Origin: a virus | Lineage: Duplodnaviria > Caudoviricetes | Reading direction: 5' to 3' (one strand) | DNA: 38,194 nt | Virus record (IMG/VR): IMGVR_UViG_3300027804_000013 | Span: 1-38,194 of that record | Shown here: one piece after another, positions 11,851 to 30,677 of the stretch | Layout of the letters: each line of letters begins with the position of its first letter | Position numbering within the stretch: position 1 is the first letter of the stretch | Translations under genes and position numbers: made by a program | The notes under the pieces: generated by a model | What the model was told of the DNA's origin: nothing | Databases searched by the model: none | What the model saw: only the letters and a program-made list of their open reading frames with translations

Positions 11851-12669
11851 TCACTTCCCTTCTGTGTTTGGTGTGATGTCGGCGGGTGCCAACTTGCTTC
11901 CTTTGCAGACGCTCCAGTAGGAGCACCACGTCGAGTTGCACAGGTAGTGCGTGTCGTTGCGTGTCCAAGGGTCGTCTGTGCCGAGCAAGATCGTTGACCG
12001 AATGAACGGTCGAACGATCTCTCGCAGCCACTCGACATGGCTCTCGTTGCGGTGGACGGGCACGATCTGTGCCTTGCCGCTTCGAACTAGAACGCCGTAG
12101 TTGAAGGTGGCTGGGAACTCCAGCCATCCGTGTGCAACTGCGGCGGCGGTGTACATGGTGGGTTGCACCGCTTGAGACTGCTTGTCACGGGCGTTGTACT
12201 TCTTGCCCGATGTCTTCCAGTCCCAGATCGCTGTGTCTGTCACACAGTCGATTGTACCAATGCCGTACACCTTGGTGTCACCAAACTCATCGAGCAGGAA
12301 GGTGAACGGCTTCTCGACTGCGACGACATTGCCGAGGACGGGAGCGATGTTCTTCTCCCATTCACGGATGAGTTCGTGCAGATGGTCGTACAGTTCTTCG
12401 TTCGTGTACTTGACACGCTGGAACGGTTCGTCGAGGAGACGGTTGAGTTCGTCGAGCGCCACCTTCTTCGGTTCACCTTTGCCTTCGAGAACGCTGGCGA
12501 TGCCAGCGTGCACAGCGGTGCCGAGGATCGTTGCGTCGTTCGGCATCGACCATTCGGGGCGGATGATTCCCTGTCGTCCTCGTTCGTTGCACATGATGGC
12601 ATCGTTGATCCACGACTGCCGTACGTACACCTCACGTGTTCCGTCTTCTTCGTTGTATCTGATCTTCAT
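11851..12669 (-). CDS. Cas4/RecB-like PD-(D/E)XK exonuclease with probable Fe-S cluster
   Basis: GTAVH, E..F, GTIDC..DWKT and Q..MY motifs; one N-terminal Cys plus C-terminal C...WC..W..C. Confidence 0.88.
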   Translation of the reverse strand: MKIRYNEEDGTREVYVRQSWINDAIMCNERGRQGIIRPEWSMPNDATILGTAVHAGIASVLEGKGEPKKVALDELNRLLDEPFQRVKYTNEELYDHLHELIREWEKNIAPVLGNVVAVEKPFTFLLDEFGDTKVYGIGTIDCVTDTAIWDWKTSGKKYNARDKQSQAVQPTMYTAAAVAHGWLEFPATFNYGVLVRSGKAQIVPVHRNESHVEWLREIVRPFIRSTILLGTDDPWTRNDTHYLCNSTWCSYWSVCKGSKLAPADITPNTEGK

Positions 12670-13124
12670 TTCCTTCCTTTCTGTTTGGGCAACGTCCGCT
12701 TGCGCAGGTGGGCTGCATACGATTTGGACACTTCGATCCCCCAGTTGTCGATGGCGTGCTGCATCACGTCTTTGTAGGACGCTCCGAGCAGAATGATTCT
12801 GCGCAGTTCGTTCCGTTGGTATTCGCTCAGAAGACCACGTGACAGGCCGACTGCGTTTCGTGCGATCAGGGCGCCGTTGCGGTGACGGAAGTACCCTTCG
12901 TTGATCTCATCGTGAACCTTGAGGATGTCTTCGAGGTAGTTGATGATCTGGTCGTCGTCCCACGTTTGTGTGTATCCACGTAGGCGGCAGATGTCTTCTC
13001 CGTATCTGAAGTCGACGACGAGGTTCTTTACAAGAATGGGAACCTGTTGCGACGACACCTTGACATCACAGAGACACTCTTCGCCGTGTGTTTCGACACC
13101 GCAACCAATCTGTTTCTTTGCCAT
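12666..13124 (-). CDS. Hypothetical protein with N-terminal Cys/His cluster and C-terminal HTH-like region
   Basis: Strong GAAAGGAG RBS; C....H...CxC; ...WGIEVSKSYAAHLRKR. Confidence 0.7.
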   Translation of the reverse strand: MAKKQIGCGVETHGEECLCDVKVSSQQVPILVKNLVVDFRYGEDICRLRGYTQTWDDDQIINYLEDILKVHDEINEGYFRHRNGALIARNAVGLSRGLLSEYQRNELRRIILLGASYKDVMQHAIDNWGIEVSKSYAAHLRKRTLPKQKGRK

Positions 13125-13891: not shown

Positions 13892-13929
13892 TTCTTCCTC
13901 CTTGTGTATTGGGTTTGGTTTGCTGTCAG

Positions 13930-13967
13930 GTGCGAGTGACGGCACCATGCGGTGCCGTCACCCACAC
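13930..13967 (-). other. 17-bp RNA stem-loop in spacer (possible RNase III site or terminator)
   Basis: GTGTGGGTGACGGCACC-gcat-GGTGCCGTCACTCGCAC; fully paired only when G-U pairs on the minus strand are allowed. Confidence 0.6.
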
Positions 13968-13974
13968 GAGAGTA

Positions 13975-14976
13975 TCAGGAGAAGACCGAGACGGCCTTCT
14001 GCGTGAGCGGGAACTTGTCGTCGAGAACTCGACGGATGGCGGCGATGTCACGCCCGTTGTTGCGCACGATGGAGCGGTGCTGCTCGTAGCCCTGCACCGC
14101 CATCACCGCATCGAACGCAGACTCGCCACGAGTCTTGTCGTTCCACTCTGCGACGATGCCGCCCCATGCGTTGTCGTACATGGTCTGCGCACGACCCTCT
14201 TTGTTGGGGCGCTTGCCGATCACAGCGGGGATCACCTGCTGTGTGAGCGTGCGCTTGTCCGCCTCCATCATCAGGAGACGATCCAGTTCCACGTCGAAGT
14301 CGTCGAACGTCGACATCATCAACTCGAGCGACTTGGTCGCCTCGACAGCAATGTCGTTGGCGTTGCGAGTGTGACGGATCACGAACCCCGTGTCTGCACG
14401 CCACGGCGTGAACGTGTTCTGGCAGACCCACAACTGGTTCATGTACTTGACGCCGAGCGGGTACATGCCGTTGTGCGACGTGTACAGACCCATGTAGCGG
14501 GTCATCTTGTCCGTCTCGTCTCCGTCCTTGCGCACGACCTTGACCATGTCACGGAACTCGATGACGATGAACACGACCTTCCCGCCCCACAGTTCGACAG
14601 CGGACACAGGCTGAGCGTCACCACGCACCTTCATCAGCACATCCATGTACTGACCGAGCACCTCGTTCTGCACCTCGCCGTACTTCTCCGAGTGCATGCC
14701 GAGGATGCTCCCCTTGTCGGTGCGGATGATCGCAGCGTGATCTTCGGCGTTCTCCATGTTGATGCCGAGGTCACGGAGGGTGTGCTTCTTCACCTGCCAG
14801 TCGAGGCCAGCGGTCACGAGCAACTCACGTCCGTCTCGGATGTTGTCGCTGATCTGCACCTTGGTGCCGACGACTTCACCCTTGCTGTTGCGGGACTCAC
14901 CGAGTCCATGCCACGGAGCCTCACGAAACGCACCGCTGGTAACTCCTCCGATAACACCATTCTTGTCGATTCCCAT
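13975..14976 (-). CDS. DUF932/DUF945 (TIGR03299-like) phage/plasmid protein
   Basis: PWHGLG, AGLDWQV, Y..VQN, SHNG and VCQNT...IRHT motifs; alternative GTG start at 14985. Confidence 0.85.
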   Translation of the reverse strand: MGIDKNGVIGGVTSGAFREAPWHGLGESRNSKGEVVGTKVQISDNIRDGRELLVTAGLDWQVKKHTLRDLGINMENAEDHAAIIRTDKGSILGMHSEKYGEVQNEVLGQYMDVLMKVRGDAQPVSAVELWGGKVVFIVIEFRDMVKVVRKDGDETDKMTRYMGLYTSHNGMYPLGVKYMNQLWVCQNTFTPWRADTGFVIRHTRNANDIAVEATKSLELMMSTFDDFDVELDRLLMMEADKRTLTQQVIPAVIGKRPNKEGRAQTMYDNAWGGIVAEWNDKTRGESAFDAVMAVQGYEQHRSIVRNNGRDIAAIRRVLDDKFPLTQKAVSVFS

Positions 14977-14981
14977 GATGA

Positions 14982-15410
14982 TCACTTCCCTTCGTTGTTG
15001 TTGTTGATGTTGTTGATGTTGCTTGCACTCACCCGAGCCTTGTAGCGCTTGGGCAAGACCTTCTGCGTCTGGAGACGCTTGATGACGGTACGCACCGATG
15101 GTGCGGAACGTCCGAGTTGATCAGCGATCTGTACCGCTGTGCGACCACGGACGTAGAGACGCTTCAGCGTGTCGATCTCGTTCTCGCTGTAGCGAGGACG
15201 CTTTCTGGCGGTCTCCTCTTCGTCTTCGTCGACGTGTTCGTCTTCGAACAGTTCGTGGTGTCCCGTGAGCACCATGCCCTTGATGAGGAACTTGTAGAGC
15301 ATCTTCGCATTCTCCGTGGGCATGCGTCCTTCACGCCACATCACGAGGACGTGGTCGAGATGCGTGACGATGGCGGTGTTGCGGTTGATGATTGACTGAT
15401 TGATCTGCAT
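14982..15410 (-). CDS. HTH DNA-binding protein (Myb/GcrA-like)
   Basis: RYSENEIDTLKRLY..GRTAVQIADQLGRSAPSVR. Confidence 0.7.
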   Translation of the reverse strand: MQINQSIINRNTAIVTHLDHVLVMWREGRMPTENAKMLYKFLIKGMVLTGHHELFEDEHVDEDEEETARKRPRYSENEIDTLKRLYVRGRTAVQIADQLGRSAPSVRTVIKRLQTQKVLPKRYKARVSASNINNINNNNEGK

Positions 15411-15488
15411 GTTGTTCTCCTTTGTTTGTGTTTGATTCTACTTCAGATGTGTTGACAAGTTTGTGGGCTGTACGCAGGGACGATGTGA

Positions 15489-15650
15489 TTACCACCTCCT
15501 TTCGAAAGTCGTCGAGCGGCGCTCACGCAAGCGACGACGCTCATCCAAACGACCCTGATCGTGACCGACGTAGTAGGCGACGATCACCGACGCCACCCAG
15601 ATGAATGCCCACAGAACGAGCAACGAATAGAACAAGGCGGTGGTGCTCAT
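15489..15650 (-). CDS. Small membrane protein
   Basis: Hydrophobic helix followed by an Arg-rich tail; ATGA overlap; GGAG RBS. Confidence 0.65.
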   Translation of the reverse strand: MSTTALFYSLLVLWAFIWVASVIVAYYVGHDQGRLDERRRLRERRSTTFERRW

Positions 15651-15982
15651 GACTCCGACCAATCGATGCGGTAGGCGACACTCGGTTCGCAGTCGATCAT
15701 CCCGCATTGATGGAAGCACGAGTGATCGGTGTCCTCGTAACCCTCGTCATCGGTGAACTGTCGGTAAGCGGTGACATACACCGCACCGTCGTCCTCCATC
15801 CACACCTCGCAGTCTGCTTTCGTCCCATCGGGGAACACGTATGTGAACCAGTCACACCCGTCCCAACCGAACGACATCAGTTGATCTCGCAACGTCTTGC
15901 CGACGAGAGCGATCGAGTCCTCGTGCTCCTCCGCATTCGCAAGGAACTTGCCTGTGATTTCTTCGTTGATGGTCATGTTCAT
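15647..15982 (-). CDS. Acidic hypothetical early protein
   Basis: AAAGGAG RBS. Confidence 0.7.
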   Translation of the reverse strand: MNMTINEEITGKFLANAEEHEDSIALVGKTLRDQLMSFGWDGCDWFTYVFPDGTKADCEVWMEDDGAVYVTAYRQFTDDEGYEDTDHSCFHQCGMIDCEPSVAYRIDWSES

Positions 15983-15990
15983 TTCTCCTT

Positions 15991-16377
15991 TCACTTGGTC
16001 TTGTTGGTCTTGGGCTTGATGGTCGGACAGTTGTGATAGTGGAAGAAGTTGCTCCCACTCCACCGCTTGATCCACTCGGTGCGCTTCTTCGTGAGGACGT
16101 TCGTGCGCAGTCCGATCGCACGCTGACACGTCTCGAGAGACAGCAGGCTGTTCCCATCCTTGTCGTAGTAGATCGCACCGAACAGGCTCTCGTAGAACCT
16201 GCCACGGTCGTAGAACTCCTGCGCCATGATCTCATCCTTGATGTGCCCGATGTCCACCACGAGTGTGAGCCACACGAGTTGGTCGTACTTCGGTGCGAGC
16301 CGATAGCCGACGTCGTCTTGCACCCACAGTTCGTCTTCGGGAAGGTTGCATGCTTGGAAATTGAAGTCGAGTGACAT
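15991..16377 (-). CDS. Hypothetical early protein
   Basis: AAAGGAG RBS; begins MSLDFNF; contains a C-terminal IGLRTNV motif. Confidence 0.75.
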   Translation of the reverse strand: MSLDFNFQACNLPEDELWVQDDVGYRLAPKYDQLVWLTLVVDIGHIKDEIMAQEFYDRGRFYESLFGAIYYDKDGNSLLSLETCQRAIGLRTNVLTKKRTEWIKRWSGSNFFHYHNCPTIKPKTNKTK

Positions 16378-16438
16378 GTTGATTTCTCCTTTGTTTGTTG
16401 GGTTATTTGCTGTTGTGATGACCACCCGTCCGACGAAA

Positions 16439-16456
16439 CTGAAACGCACGTTTCAG
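16439..16456. repeat. Palindromic repeat CTGAAACG-CA-CGTTTCAG, copy 1 (inside a longer stem at 16421-16469)
   Basis: Identical copies at 18719 and 19269; variant at 18050. Confidence 0.9.
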
Positions 16457-16483
16457 TCGGACGAGTGGTGCACCGACATCTTG

Positions 16484-17071
16484 TCAGAGGATCGTGACGT
16501 CCACGTCTTCGGTCTCTTCCGAATCGGTGTGCATGTCGATCACCTCAAAGATCGAGTCCTCAAAGCAGAGGTGATTCGCATCGGGATCATTGCTGAAGAC
16601 ATCCTTGATGTGATCCTCGATCTCATCGGGATCGGTTTTGCCCTGCATCGTCTTGATGTTCAACGTGATGCGCTTCTTCACCAGCACCTCGATGTCGATC
16701 TCCAACTCACGACGACGAGGGTCGTGCACCTCACCGACATCCCAGCCGAAGTGCATGTTGAACAGCGAAGAGAACGCTTCGATGATGTCATCGTCCTCCT
16801 CGTAGTCGGGCAGGAACTCGTTGATCACACGCACCACATGCTTGAGCAGAGACGACTGCTTCTGATGCATGATCTCCAACTGCTCGATGCGAGCCTGCTT
16901 CACACGGTCACCCTGCGTCACCATCTCGACGTACTTCTCCGAGTACCAGTTGCCACCGCTGAACTTGGCGACCTGACCGCCCTCGCTCATCCCATTGAAC
17001 CGCATGAGTTCAAACGGGTTGCGTTCGATGTAGTCGTTGTTGATGTTGTCGTTGCTGTTGTTGTTCTCCAT
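16484..17071 (-). CDS. Acidic hypothetical early protein
   Basis: AAAGGAG RBS; strongly Asp/Glu-rich C-terminal half. Confidence 0.75.
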   Translation of the reverse strand: MENNNSNDNINNDYIERNPFELMRFNGMSEGGQVAKFSGGNWYSEKYVEMVTQGDRVKQARIEQLEIMHQKQSSLLKHVVRVINEFLPDYEEDDDIIEAFSSLFNMHFGWDVGEVHDPRRRELEIDIEVLVKKRITLNIKTMQGKTDPDEIEDHIKDVFSNDPDANHLCFEDSIFEVIDMHTDSEETEDVDVTIL

Positions 17072-17129
17072 GATTGTCTCCTTTGTTTGTTGGTTGATGT
17101 TGTTGTCACCGACGACGTGAAACACGGCG

Positions 17130-18062
17130 TCAGACCTTGTCAGCGTAAACACGCTGAACGATAGCGGGCATCTTGCTGATCGCATAACCCTTCATGCGCA
17201 GATCGACGATGCACCCGCTCGGATCACCGAAACGGAAATCGTCCTCATCGCCCGAGATGACAGGCACATTCTCGTTGAACTCATCGAGATCCATGCGACG
17301 CATCACGTCATCACCCTTGCGACGATCAGTCACCACAGCGATGCAACCGCCATGACCACGCCACCCTGCGACACGCTTCTGCAACTCACGATCACGAGCG
17401 ACACGCTCGCTGTACGAGAACGTGAGACGATAGTTCTCCGTCATCCACGACGAACCCGTGAAGTGCTTGCCCTGAGGCAACACGTCCTCGTTCTTCGTGT
17501 AGTCGTACGCATTGACAGCGAGATCACCGAACAAATCCTCGGCAACCAGCCACCACGGAATGTCACTATTCACGTTGAGGCGAAGAGCAATCTCATTCCA
17601 GTTGCGAGTCGCCCAACGCAACTCTGCACGAAGCAGAACAGCGAACTCAACAGGATGAGTGATGAACGCCTCGCTACGCCACGCACGAGCCTTCTGCACC
17701 GACGTGAGTTCACCCTTGCCATGCTTGCCGACACACGTCTGCACACACGACCCAGCATTCGGACACATGTTGACCTTGCGACCATTCAACATCTCGTGAA
17801 CGAACGACGACATCGTGAGTGAATACGTATCCATCTCATTCTTCGCCAGTTTGGCGTTGTGCTTGCCCTTGCCGAGCAACGACCACGAATCAGTCGTGTA
17901 CCCGTACTGTCGTCGCACGTCACCGATCACACGACGAGCATGAGCCATGCCCGACGCAGTCAGATCCACGTTCGCACGCAACGCCTCACGAATGGCAGGC
18001 GCCCACGATTCCATGAACGCATCCACGGACTGAACCTTCTTCAACGAAACTGAAACGCTCAT
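17130..18062 (-). CDS. Gp88-domain protein (Cys-cluster, radical-SAM-like fold)
   Basis: CPNAGSCVQTC, RLNVNSDIPW, YDYTK, NYRLTFS and GDEDDFRF.D...IVDLRMKG motifs typical of phage gene product 88. Confidence 0.8.
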   Translation of the reverse strand: MSVSVSLKKVQSVDAFMESWAPAIREALRANVDLTASGMAHARRVIGDVRRQYGYTTDSWSLLGKGKHNAKLAKNEMDTYSLTMSSFVHEMLNGRKVNMCPNAGSCVQTCVGKHGKGELTSVQKARAWRSEAFITHPVEFAVLLRAELRWATRNWNEIALRLNVNSDIPWWLVAEDLFGDLAVNAYDYTKNEDVLPQGKHFTGSSWMTENYRLTFSYSERVARDRELQKRVAGWRGHGGCIAVVTDRRKGDDVMRRMDLDEFNENVPVISGDEDDFRFGDPSGCIVDLRMKGYAISKMPAIVQRVYADKV

Positions 18063-18069
18063 TTCAGTT
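18048..18069. repeat. Palindromic repeat, variant copy 2, containing the upstream stop codon and the Gp88 start codon
   Basis: Minus strand reads AACTGAAATG-AG-CGTTTCAGTT. Confidence 0.8.
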
Positions 18070-18219
18070 ACCCTCCTCTTCCAGTTGTGCCTGCAGTTCG
18101 CAGAGCAACAGAGCGATGCGACCCGCACGATGCGGGTTGCGAGCGCTGTGATGCCGATGCGCCTTCTTGCTCTTCGCCACCTCACGAACGAGGCGGTTGT
18201 TGTGCTGATTGATGTTCAT
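18064..18219 (-). CDS. Small hypothetical protein
   Basis: AAGGAG RBS; H..H...N.H...C pattern. Confidence 0.65.
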   Translation of the reverse strand: MNINQHNNRLVREVAKSKKAHRHHSARNPHRAGRIALLLCELQAQLEEEGN

Positions 18220-18229
18220 TTCATTCTCC

Positions 18230-18291
18230 TTGTCCTGTCTCATCAGACCCACGGCGGACACCCGTGGATTATGCCTCACGGCATTTCGACT
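18230..18291 (-). ncRNA. Type II hammerhead ribozyme
   Basis: GUC-GAAA-UGCC(GUGA)GGCA-UA^-AUCCACGG(GUGUCCG)CCGUGGGU-CUGAUGA-GAC-AGGACA. All core nucleotides and three stems are present, plus a loop I UGUCC / 3' GGACA pseudoknot. Confidence 0.88.
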
Positions 18292-18295
18292 GTGA

Positions 18296-18619
18296 TCAAT
18301 CCTTGTGGAACGGATTGCTGTTGCACGTCACGCAACAGTTGTCGTGCACGATCTTGTCGCCGTCCTCATGCCACGAGAACTCGTCCCAGATGTCCTCGTC
18401 GCACTCATCGCACACGTTGATCACCTTGATCAGAGGATGACCGCCCATGCGACCACCATCCATCCCCGACAACGTGTCACACAGCGAGAACAGAGCGAAC
18501 GTGGCAACATCCATCAACATCTTTGCATCGCCAGCGAACACGTTCTTCAGATAGTTGCGCAACAGATCATTGCAAGCATCCTCAAGCGTCCTCACGTCGT
18601 TGTTGAAGTAACGGGTCAT
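18296..18619 (-). CDS. Hypothetical protein with C-terminal Cys/His Zn-finger
   Basis: CDEC...H..CC..C; GAAAGGA RBS. Confidence 0.7.
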   Translation of the reverse strand: MTRYFNNDVRTLEDACNDLLRNYLKNVFAGDAKMLMDVATFALFSLCDTLSGMDGGRMGGHPLIKVINVCDECDEDIWDEFSWHEDGDKIVHDNCCVTCNSNPFHKD

Positions 18620-18737
18620 TTCATTTCCTTTCAAACACCGATCAGTTGTTCACGGTGTAGCGCCTCGCCGTGCAACGAACACGGCGCAAACACGCTTTGC
18701 GAATGCGTGCTAGGCAAACTGAAACGCACGTTTCAGA
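18620..18737 (-). ncRNA. Structured leader RNA element, copy B (unrecognised motif)
   Basis: Same architecture as 19182-19300, with compensatory base changes. Confidence 0.65.
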
Positions 18738-19181
18738 TCAGGCGAACTCCTCCTGAAGAGCGAGGAACAGCGCACGACGCTGACGCTTGTCCATCTTCGC
18801 CAACATCTTCTCGGCCTCAGCCTTCGGCGTCGTCTTCTTCTCCGACACCGCACGCTGACCCGAACCCTTCATCGTCTCACGAACATGATCGATACCCATG
18901 TCGGTGCCGAAATCCTCACGGACATAGCCAGCCTTCAGAGCACGAACCACCACACCGACAGTCGTGCGAATCGTGCCCTCCGTGTTGCGCTTCGCACCCA
19001 AGAAAGTCGCCGCTTCGGCGTACTTGCTCGCATTGCCCTTGTAGTTCGCCACGCACTCCTCGCCCGCATGCCACCACCAATCCAACGACAACGCCTCGCC
19101 CGCTTGAACGTTCTGCTCAATCGCAACGAAGTTGTTCTTGTTCGGGTAGTTCTTCGGGCACCACTTCATGATCTTGTTCAT
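18738..19181 (-). CDS. Basic hypothetical early protein
   Basis: GGAGG RBS; clean ORF between two leader elements. Confidence 0.75.
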   Translation of the reverse strand: MNKIMKWCPKNYPNKNNFVAIEQNVQAGEALSLDWWWHAGEECVANYKGNASKYAEAATFLGAKRNTEGTIRTTVGVVVRALKAGYVREDFGTDMGIDHVRETMKGSGQRAVSEKKTTPKAEAEKMLAKMDKRQRRALFLALQEEFA

Positions 19182-19300
19182 TTCATTTCCTCCAAACGCC
19201 AATCAGTTGTTCATGGCGTAGCGTGCAGTCGGGGAACGACCCCGAACGATTCACTCTCTGCACCCAAACTGAAACGCACGTTTCAGTTTCAGTTTCGGAC
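19182..19300 (-). ncRNA. Structured leader RNA element, copy A (unrecognised motif)
   Basis: Palindrome hairpin, then a tRNA-elbow-like domain, then a covarying hairpin with loop UGAACAACUGAU, then the RBS. Confidence 0.65.
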
Positions 19301-19301
19301 A

Positions 19302-19568
19302 TCAGTAACCACGAGCACCAGCGACGTACTCAATCTCGCCCACCACATACTCACGCACCAACACACCACCACGCATCTCGCACATCTCAAGATCCACGAA
19401 CGCCTGCAACGCACGACGAACATCATCACCACGACCCAACGGCTCCGTGCGACTCTGCACCATCGTCAACGACCACGCACCATCATCGTCGTTCACCGAC
19501 AGAGTCCACTCGTAGTCACGACTCTCAAGCGTGCGACGCACGCAACTCACGAACCATACCGCATCCAT
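19302..19568 (-). CDS. First early gene, hypothetical
   Basis: AAGGAG RBS before ATG 19568. Confidence 0.65.
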   Translation of the reverse strand: MDAVWFVSCVRRTLESRDYEWTLSVNDDDGAWSLTMVQSRTEPLGRGDDVRRALQAFVDLEMCEMRGGVLVREYVVGEIEYVAGARGY

Positions 19569-19798
19569 CTCATATCTCCTTGATCTCTTGTCTCGGGAAC
19601 ACCCTGCTCCCACCTATTGGGGAGACGGGAAATCCTGCCCGAATCCCCTTGTGCCTGTACAGGGCGACTGTTCGTCCTGTGCACCCCGATCGGGACGATG
19701 GAGGGGGTGCATGGCCCCCCACCCGTACAGCGCTATAAAGGAGTCTCTCTGTGGAGGGCCGAATTGGTGTGCGCTGATATGTTGGGGGGTAAATGAAG

Positions 19799-19828
19799 GA
19801 ACCCCCCGTATGGGGGGTTCTGTTTGTG
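19799..19828. terminator. Intrinsic terminator-like hairpin (possibly bidirectional)
   Basis: GAACCCCCC-gtat-GGGGGGTTC with T-rich tails on both strands; downstream of the leftward gene ending at 19842. Confidence 0.6.
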
Positions 19829-19841
19829 GGACTCCTGCTGG

Positions 19842-29640: not shown

Positions 29641-30677
29641 TGGCTACTGCTTCTGTCACTTACGTGTTTGCCAACGGCACTAACGCCGATGGCACACAAG
29701 TCAATGCCAACTTCACTTCGGTGCTCAACTTTCTGAACACCGAAGTTGTCCAGCGTGACGCTTCTATTGCTTTCACCTCGATCCCGACGTTGCCTGCGAC
29801 GACACCTACGTTGGACAACCATGCTGTCCGCAAGGCATATGTCGATGCGTTCATTCCTGCTGGCATCATCACTCAGTATGGTGGTGCTGTTGCGCCGAGC
29901 GGATGGTTTATTTGCGACGGTTCGGCTGTGTCACGCACGAACCCGACTTACAGTCGGTTGTTCGCTGCGATCGGAACCACCTACGGCGCTGGTGACGGTA
30001 GCACCACGTTCAATGTTCCGAACCTGAAGGGTCGTGTGCCTGTAGGTTTTGATTCTACGCAAACCGAGTTTGACGCTTTGGCTGAGACTGGTGGTGCGAA
30101 GACTCATACTTTGGTTCAGAGCGAAATGCCTGCCCACACGCATACTCAGGATGCTCACAACCATACGCAAAATGCGCACACGCATGTTCAGGATGCGCAC
30201 ACGCATACGCAAGATGCGCATAACCATTCGCAGAACTCGCATAACCATGCTCAAGATGCGCATGGGCATAGTGCTAATGCGCATAATCATTTTGTCTATA
30301 TTGAGACTGGCTCTAATGGTTCTCATAGCCATAGTGCATTCTTGTCAGCATCAAATAGTGGTAGATCTAGTGGTAGTACTTTGACTGCAAACCTTGGTGG
30401 CACTGACAACACTAGTTCTGCTGGTACTCACTCACACCTTGTTGCAGGATACACAGGAGATACCACTCCAACTGTCAACGCCAATACTGCAACGAACCAG
30501 GCCACTACTGCAACAAATAACGCTGCTACTGCTACCAACCAGTCCAATACTGCAGTTAACCAAAATGCTATAGCCGTGAACTTGGCGGCTACAGCCACTA
30601 ACCAGTCAACTGGTGGTGGCGGAGCGCACAATAACCTTCAACCTTATATCGTGGTGAATCACATCATCAAACTCTGA
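29640..30677 (+). CDS. Tail-collar domain fibre/needle protein with HxH repeats
   Basis: PSGWFICDG.AVSRT...LFAAIGTTYGAGDGSTTFNVPNLKGR collar domain; HNNLQPY C-terminus. Confidence 0.88.
   Translation: MATASVTYVFANGTNADGTQVNANFTSVLNFLNTEVVQRDASIAFTSIPTLPATTPTLDNHAVRKAYVDAFIPAGIITQYGGAVAPSGWFICDGSAVSRTNPTYSRLFAAIGTTYGAGDGSTTFNVPNLKGRVPVGFDSTQTEFDALAETGGAKTHTLVQSEMPAHTHTQDAHNHTQNAHTHVQDAHTHTQDAHNHSQNSHNHAQDAHGHSANAHNHFVYIETGSNGSHSHSAFLSASNSGRSSGSTLTANLGGTDNTSSAGTHSHLVAGYTGDTTPTVNANTATNQATTATNNAATATNQSNTAVNQNAIAVNLAATATNQSTGGGGAHNNLQPYIVVNHIIKL

Follow-up and report, generated by a model that had tools for sequence, protein, structure and literature searches.

A tRNA-like RNA motif and hammerhead ribozymes at the same gene junctions in a phage genome and its relatives

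The viral record IMGVR_UViG_3300027804_000013 (Duplodnaviria; Caudoviricetes), analyzed here over its whole length of 38,194 bases (the window), is a complete phage genome with a terminal repeat of 127 nucleotides (nt). An operon runs leftward from about position 19570, and its spacers contain a type II hammerhead ribozyme (18229-18291) and, in two leaders designated A and B, a tRNA-like motif whose place is taken by a hammerhead in some relatives. The genes and RNA elements given between 13930 and 19568 lie on the minus strand. The first open reading frame (orf) of the operon encodes 88 amino acids (aa; 19302-19568) and is followed by orfs of 147 aa (18738-19181), 107 aa (18296-18619, between element B and the hammerhead), and 51 aa (18064-18219, downstream of the hammerhead); neither the 88-aa nor the 147-aa product has a Pfam match, and orthologues of the latter anchor the synteny of sites A and B. 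Beyond these are a Gp88-family gene (17130-18062; PF17338, E-value 1e-18), a gene for a 142-aa protein with a weak helix-turn-helix match under the Pfam cut-offs (14982-15410), a DUF932 gene (13975-14976; PF06067, E-value 1e-20), and genes for a PD-(D/E)XK nuclease, a DnaB-like helicase, a primase and RusA. Gene content suggests that the operon is early, and it is presumably transcribed as a single message.

Relatives were gathered through the DUF932 gene and are labelled L009, L042 and so on. The host is probably an actinobacterium, since 82 of the 84 GenBank phage records that match DUF932 bear actinobacterial genus names, the best of them at about 25% identity; no DNA match to the window was found among GenBank phages. 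A sequence-only reading of the window had proposed that a suite of RNA devices in the spacers of this operon cuts its transcript into short mRNAs, and all of the positions that it named do hold the sequences it described.

The hammerhead, which that reading had placed at 18230-18291, matches RF02276 at 18229-18291 with 33.3 bits, under the gathering score of 37; the E-value is 1.3e-4 in a 1.3-kilobase (kb) scan and 9e-7 for the genome, and the Rfam scan of the whole window did not report it. Its core is complete (CUGANGA, GAAA and A15.1-U16.1), the NUH triplet is AUA, and the three stems, of 3, 4 and 8 base pairs (bp), are in type II order, with cleavage predicted between 18270 and 18269. Five complementary bases allow a pseudoknot between loop I and the tail (18260-18256 with 18235-18231) that adjoins the ribosome-binding site (RBS), and the same pairing is possible in both ribozymes of L009. 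The L009 orthologue (37.4 bits) differs at two positions, which together make one compensatory pair in stem III. On these grounds we regard the hammerhead as real. Hammerheads flanking prophage genes cleave in vitro, and segmentation of mRNA was proposed for them in 2011 (Perreault et al., PMC3088659); self-cleavage of the one here is inferred, and those described there are likewise of type II, with the loop I-tail pseudoknot just upstream of the RBS, and long phage transcripts were proposed there to be processed into gene-length mRNAs. Two further type II hammerhead-like sequences lie in early spacers of a more distant phage (L063, minus strand, at 1732 and 1423).

The same motif makes up both leader A and leader B, which are therefore not members of a suite of many different devices. 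The motif consists, in order, of a closing helix (P1), a variable arm, a T-arm-like hairpin, the linker R-C-U, a 6-bp hairpin (P4) with a 12-nt loop, and the RBS, and the 3′ strand of the T-arm-like hairpin continues straight into P1. In element A (19196-19263), P1 is formed by 19263-19258 with 19228-19223, the T-like arm spans 19245-19229 with the loop UCGUU, GCU is at 19222-19220, and P4 (19219-19196) is followed by the RBS at 19193-19189. In element B (18635-18715), P1 pairs 18715-18712 with 18665-18662, an extra arm occupies 18711-18689, the T-like arm (18686-18666) has the loop UUCGUUG, GCU is at 18661-18659, and P4 is at 18658-18635. The stack of P1 on the T-arm-like hairpin is 12 bp in A and 11 bp in B and starts with G, and it can be likened to the top half of a tRNA, acceptor plus T-arm. 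Neither element is a tRNA gene: no cloverleaf with D-stem, anticodon arm and canonical T-loop is found at A or B, ARAGORN calls no tRNA genes in the window and none at the elements in relatives, and there is no Rfam tRNA match. Rfam, which recognizes the hammerhead below its gathering score, has no match for A or B. Two other structures were considered and rejected. In a fold like that of hepatitis delta virus (HDV) ribozymes, a strand past P4 would pair back ahead of the T-like arm, and none does so by eye; the P4 loop was also considered as a collapsed hammerhead core, in which the C of CUGA is not conserved.

The relationship between motif and hammerhead is seen most directly at site A. L009 and L033 are 92% identical to the window over 12 kb, and at site A L009 has a full hammerhead (52.4 bits) whose stem III is a copy of an 18-bp quasi-palindrome repeated in the operon. 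The window retains at 19266-19300 the 5′ half of a type II hammerhead, now dead, which comprises the 5′ strand of stem II, GAAA and stem III and has three differences from the intact L009 allele over the first 44 nt compared; the triplet after the remnant is GUG, not GUC, no CUGAUGA core follows, and immediately beyond the palindrome the sequence changes from remnant to motif. Read most simply, recombination at the repeat would have exchanged a hammerhead for the motif here. At site B, the spacer after the 147-aa orthologue, the motif is present in four loci (the window, L009/L033, L217 and L219) and a hammerhead or hammerhead-like variant in four others, the eight including three near-duplicate pairs and so representing about five lineages. 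The site B hammerhead of L037 matches RF02276 (E-value 4.6e-6), those of L017 and L216 are of the U15.1-A16.1 type, found by descriptor, and that of L221 has a one-base core insertion, recognized by eye. Variants of both kinds were described by Perreault et al. (PMC3088659), where such cores are reported as active at lower rates. The proposal that the unrecognised leaders occupy the same kind of position as the hammerhead is thus borne out by direct swaps at both sites. Relatives carry the motif or a hammerhead at the same gene junction, which suggests that the motif is likely a second way of cutting the early message.

Three further distinct copies of the A/B motif are present in the L042/L044 group, giving five in total. 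Double changes are seen at 4 of the 10 pairs in this set; 96% of the 50 cells are paired, against no more than 47% in slid controls, and 1 of 500 shuffles scores as high, in a test that is limited by the small number of copies and inflated by kinship. Within the T-like arm, L044 differs from L042 by a double change. A wider set of elements, with a short P4 loop, was recognized in L016 (found by a loose descriptor, not by eye), L035, L037, L210, L211, L213 and L214, and kinship between this subtype and the A/B subtype is likely from their common arrangement. P1 begins with G in all 12 hand-parsed elements; P1 plus T-arm amounts to 12 bp in seven and to 10–13 bp in all, R-C-N follows the stack directly in ten and after one base in two, and U is at −1 in three. 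In L035 and L037 the T-arm is canonical and the acceptor has 7 bp, and the same A-C-U with its hairpin comes next. These two elements (L035, minus strand 456-375; L037, minus strand about 2115-2019) also have an 11-nt pyrimidine-rich loop and no CCA; ARAGORN calls neither, and that of L035 has no Rfam match either.

A strict descriptor of the motif matches 9 of 35 spacers and 0 of 7000 shuffles, with one other (false) site in 506 kb. The elements were also sought more widely. A pattern scan of viral sequences returned nine loci (six known members and three chance hits), and a scan of metagenomes returned 122 matches in 121 loci; among the matches listed, only L102, which is the window's own sequence, shows the element by eye. 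Six of the better-looking chance loci score no more than 30.4 bits, against at least 62.8 for members. Prokaryote genomes scanned with the DUF932 alignment yielded 30 candidates, none confirmed; the model designated R1 found nothing in five further whole records; 80 loci gathered through a 96-aa protein contained no hammerhead, no A/B hairpin and no T-arm match; and RF02276 found no hammerhead in five records bearing tRNA-like elements. A loose descriptor of tRNA geometry was set aside as unspecific (89 hits in 1.05 megabases).

According to PMC10731613, the features read by bacterial RNase P are a 12-nt stem, a T-loop and a 3′ RCCA, the last of which pairs with GGU in L15; the D-loop is described as dispensable and a T-loop or similar loop as required (PMC4919913), and the enzyme is reported to cut some mRNAs, non-tRNA RNAs and phage RNAs (PMC10731613, PMC4919913, PMC11143913). 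We propose that the early transcript is cut at all three sites, by self-cleavage at the hammerhead and, at A and B, with host RNase P as the likeliest enzyme, immediately 5′ of the motif's first G. The motif would dock in RNase P, with its R-C-U pairing to the GGU of L15 and U75 forming a G-U wobble. Each cut would leave an upstream piece that ends in a hairpin, which for A and B is that of the palindrome, and a downstream mRNA with its 5′ end hidden in a helix that precedes the RBS, which would set the stability or translation of that mRNA; a hammerhead cut in L009 would give the same arrangement. When folded from G+1, the downstream RNA takes exactly the proposed structure, with a free RBS. 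A cut of some kind at A and B seems somewhat probable. The full proposal, with a host tRNA-processing enzyme acting at both leaders and the hammerhead cutting itself, we hold tentatively, at a little under an even chance; that the enzyme is RNase P is possible but doubtful, and RNase Z would be an improbable choice.

The earlier suggestion of tRNA mimicry fits the geometry; neither the T-loop nor the CCA is canonical. The motif follows the RNase P ruler and, as parsed by hand, has G+1; it agrees with RCCA in part and departs from the T-loop consensus in A and B. Several observations weigh against cutting by RNase P or limit the case for it. The U54-A58 pair of the T-loop consensus is lacking, with U-C-R kept and A58 absent in A, B and the L042a and L042b copies; L035 and L037 alone have the canonical form. 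The 3′ motif is RCU, not RCCA; across copies it is R-C-U or R-C-G, the first two bases matching RCCA while the third could wobble with L15. The base at −1 is G in A and U in B, and the stack of B is 11 bp. In equilibrium folding, the pairing probability of P1 in A drops from about 0.8 to 0.01 with 60 or 150 nt of flank, and in B from 0.88 to about 0.4 with flanks. The exact A/B subtype is represented by five distinct copies in two phage groups, and the strict descriptor was written after most examples had been seen and misses L016, L211 and L214. A covariance model of A/B scores the wider members in register with E-values that are not significant (L035 0.38, L037 0.42, L016 1.1, L211 7.1). Three of the four site B hammerheads (L017, L216 and L221) have no RF02276 match at that site, and a common position is not proof of a common function. 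Mimicry of an RNase P substrate would also leave the conserved 12-nt loop of P4 unexplained.

That loop bears on a different reading, in which A and B are not cut and instead act as protein- or ribosome-responsive leaders (in translational control, antitermination or as an exonuclease roadblock) placed in hammerhead cassette slots; we consider this rather unlikely. The P4 loop, next to the RBS, is the best-conserved sequence of the A/B motif, and in all five copies it has tandem G-A plus U-U, resembling the K-loop consensus, in which a loop caps a stem bearing tandem G-A pairs beside U-U. The tRNA identity features of A and B are degenerate, and when A is folded in isolation its RBS is paired with the hammerhead remnant (three positions have unpaired probabilities of 0.06–0.12), a possible switch. 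However, a non-cutting leader would not explain the fixed 11–12-bp stack, the G+1, the spacing of R-C-U or the canonical T-arm of L035 and L037; a short loop replaces the P4 loop in wider members; and bacterial homologues of L7Ae are reported as not binding K-loops, in a reference listed in PMC5539422.

The motif could alternatively be a self-cleaving ribozyme of a new class, as had been suggested for the unrecognised leaders, built on a tRNA-top-half scaffold as a three-way junction docking on the P4 loop, and swapping with hammerheads as a cassette bounded by phage-specific DNA palindromes. No positive evidence of such a ribozyme was found, and we judge it unlikely. The direct replacement of the hammerhead at site A would be accounted for; the T-like loop pairs on paper with the P4 loop (GUUC with GAAC, in A and L042a); and new classes have turned up near ribozyme-associated genes (PMC5737381). 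Against this, Rfam has no ribozyme except the hammerhead at E < 10 in 18100-19400, the invariant stretches are short, the P4 loop is absent from wider members, and several similarly promising motifs are reported in PMC5737381 to have failed to self-cleave in tests. We think it somewhat less likely still that the elements are captured relics of tRNA genes, or generic stabilising hairpins, recombined at palindromes and having no specific role in processing. L035 and L037 do resemble degenerate tRNA genes, genuine tRNA genes are present at 3 of 23 related loci, and palindromes bound most junctions; but near-identical strains show compensatory changes, the geometry is conserved across unlike sequences, and the elements are confined to the first early spacers, all of which argues for selection.

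Several known systems resemble the arrangement described here. The early mRNA of phage T7 is processed by RNase III at structured signals between the early genes of one transcript, whereas the candidate signals here would be ribozymes and tRNA mimics, and no RNase III feature was identified. The tRNA-like substrates of RNase P share with A and B the stacked acceptor and T-like helices of about 12 bp, a G at +1, an unpaired R-C beyond the helix and the lack of a D-stem; unlike them, A and B have a loop without A58 and a tail of RCU followed by a hairpin and the RBS, and they recur inside a presumed early mRNA, as putative substrates, rather than being part of a stable RNA. Unlike the hammerheads described in PMC3088659, those here alternate with a motif that is not a hammerhead, and a half hammerhead records one such swap. 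Theta ribozymes (PMC10879173) are also phage ribozymes linked to tRNA-shaped RNA; as described there they are HDV-like and lie beside real tRNAs, whereas A and B lack HDV topology and are not tRNAs. Hammerhead segmentation has already been put forward as a hypothesis, and tRNA-like phage RNAs are known to be cut by RNase P; what appears new is the A/B motif and the fossil swap. No description of the motif was found in Rfam or in a literature search that covered few subscription papers and whose scope did not extend to the motif drawings in the supplements of PMC5737381. The purpose of many ribozymes near phage genes is described as still open (PMC6765202), and a natural control pair is offered by these two phages, which share 92% identity and have a hammerhead in one case and a tRNA-like element in the other before the same gene. 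Should both elements prove to cut, the selected function would be the cut itself, and phages would be using the strategy of tRNA punctuation on mRNA by way of a host enzyme; cleavage by the motif in the absence of protein would make it a new ribozyme class.

The 18-bp quasi-palindrome occurs four times in the window, all within the leftward operon (eight strand matches, against 0.07 expected). Copy 1 (19269-19286) lies in the hammerhead remnant region and forms the first hairpin of leader A; copy 2 (18719-18736), one base past a stop codon, is the first hairpin of leader B; copy 3 (18050-18067) overlaps both a stop codon and the Gp88 start codon; and copy 4 (16439-16456) is at the center of the stem at 16421-16469. 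The hairpin over the Gp88 start (18048-18069), which the sequence-only reading had counted among the spacer structures, is thus not in a spacer and is one of the four copies of a phage-specific, DNA-like repeat. Relatives each have their own repeat, located at early stop codons or close to them, with 3–13 copies in 12 of 14 loci and one or two in the other two (11 different motifs having been supplied to the search); several of these are nearly all A-T, and the mismatches in 12 copies in L210 are six A-C to one G-U. The repeat is a dyad at gene boundaries, constant within a genome and free of RNA-type bias, as expected of an operator. A phage protein likely binds the palindrome as a DNA site, and the swaps probably crossed over there. 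Since the repeat behaves like a DNA site, the Gp88 hairpin and the first hairpins of A and B are not separate RNA devices.

Candidate binders of the palindrome include the 142-aa helix-turn-helix protein, with orthologues in 3 of 16 loci, and a 152-aa protein, present in 9 of 16. The latter (window 12666-13124) has an N-terminal C/H-rich motif and a variable helical C-terminus. Beside another repeat copy, the N-terminus of Gp88 (window 17130-18062 compared with L009 9117-10040) is exchanged just past the palindrome-overlapping start. Among known elements, the PeSL elements of T4-type phages are short phage-group-specific repeats at early gene boundaries. The stoperators and start-associated sequences of mycobacteriophages (PMC3203893, PMC12266134) are likewise short group-specific repeats in such positions. 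Unlike any of these, the repeats here have dyad symmetry and lie either directly before RNA elements or within them.

Seven early spacers are at least 57 nt long, and four of them fold on the mRNA strand at z ≤ −2 (A, −3.4; B, −2.0; 16378-16483, −4.6; 13892-13974, −4.7); the hammerhead spacer reaches −1.8 with its pseudoknot left out of the fold, and two are unstructured (17073-17129, +0.6; 15411-15488, +1.9). The claim that most of the longer spacers are structured is therefore correct in part. Four of 22 coding windows also reach z ≤ −2, and energy alone therefore does not prove A and B, for which the support is comparative. The same reading had taken imperfect pairs that are G-U on the minus strand but A-C on the plus strand as a sign of selection on RNA. 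Counted over 16 hand-picked helices with 121 pair positions, there are six G-U and no A-C. This departs from 50:50 with p = 0.016, but when the reference is the 25:14 ratio of coding hairpins on the same G-rich strand p is 0.07, and one of the six G-U pairs is forced by the Gp88 ATG; the asymmetry is suggestive only.

Three of the listed stems remain. The weak, interrupted hairpin at 17109-17133 is no better than chance. The stem at 16421-16469 has a 14-bp outer stem after a stop codon, and the hairpin at 13930-13967 has 17 bp after the DUF932 stop; neither has a U tract, and a terminator scan found no U-tailed terminator at any listed stem. At the junction matching 16421-16469 a stem of different sequence is present in all five relatives shown, the orthology of the upstream gene being weak (E-value 0.03), and a post-DUF932 hairpin of 11–16 bp is present in six of ten relatives and absent in four. 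For the two long stems, selection as RNA structures is likely, and so is a role as 3′-protective or partial-terminator hairpins, which explains them as well as RNase III does; the proposal that they are double-stranded RNA substrates of that enzyme finds no RNase III-specific sign in either. We consider it very improbable that the palindrome is itself an RNA device and that the long stems are RNase III sites. The palindrome does fold well in the window, with pairing of 0.83–0.99 in five of six tests and 0.24 in one, and it lies inside RNA stems in the window, L009, L210, L211 and L213, while the long stems recur at matching junctions. The nearly all A-T composition of many relatives' repeats, their differences between phage groups together with constancy within a genome, and the L210 mismatches speak against an RNA role for the palindrome, as do, for RNase III, orthologous post-DUF932 stems as short as 11 bp and their absence from four relatives.

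Two sequencing runs contain matching sequences. One (RNA run X1) has a single 203-nt contig identical to 18741-18943, in which DNA carry-over is possible, and contigs carry no end information; the other (X2), which may be the same sample, contains the L009 hammerhead allele with zero differences over 1366 nt. A promoter scan returned one site, against 2.6 expected. The non-coding sequence at 19575-19830, which precedes the operon and probably contains the early promoter, has a terminator-like hairpin (19820-19799) and G/C-run sequences that look conserved in relatives. The unstructured spacer at 15411-15488 has −35-like and −10-like hexamers just 12 nt apart, not called by the scan, and is a possible internal promoter.

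Other repeated structures were noted. A third shared element (L221 5634-5757, L217 6603-6749, L219 6610-6754) is made up of two long hairpins that stack, then G-C-U and then a short hairpin; its junction sequence is conserved, and no credible Rfam match was found in L221. A 26-nt pseudoknot-like motif with covarying loop-tail pairing, often in tandem, is repeated on the plus strand in early spacers of L011 (4560, 4678), L012 (about 900, 1017, 1127), L014 (4293) and L018 (7020); it has no Rfam match at gathering level, nor at E < 10 in L012. In the structural region of the window, a 345-aa orf contains 21-nt tandem repeats at 30131-30277.

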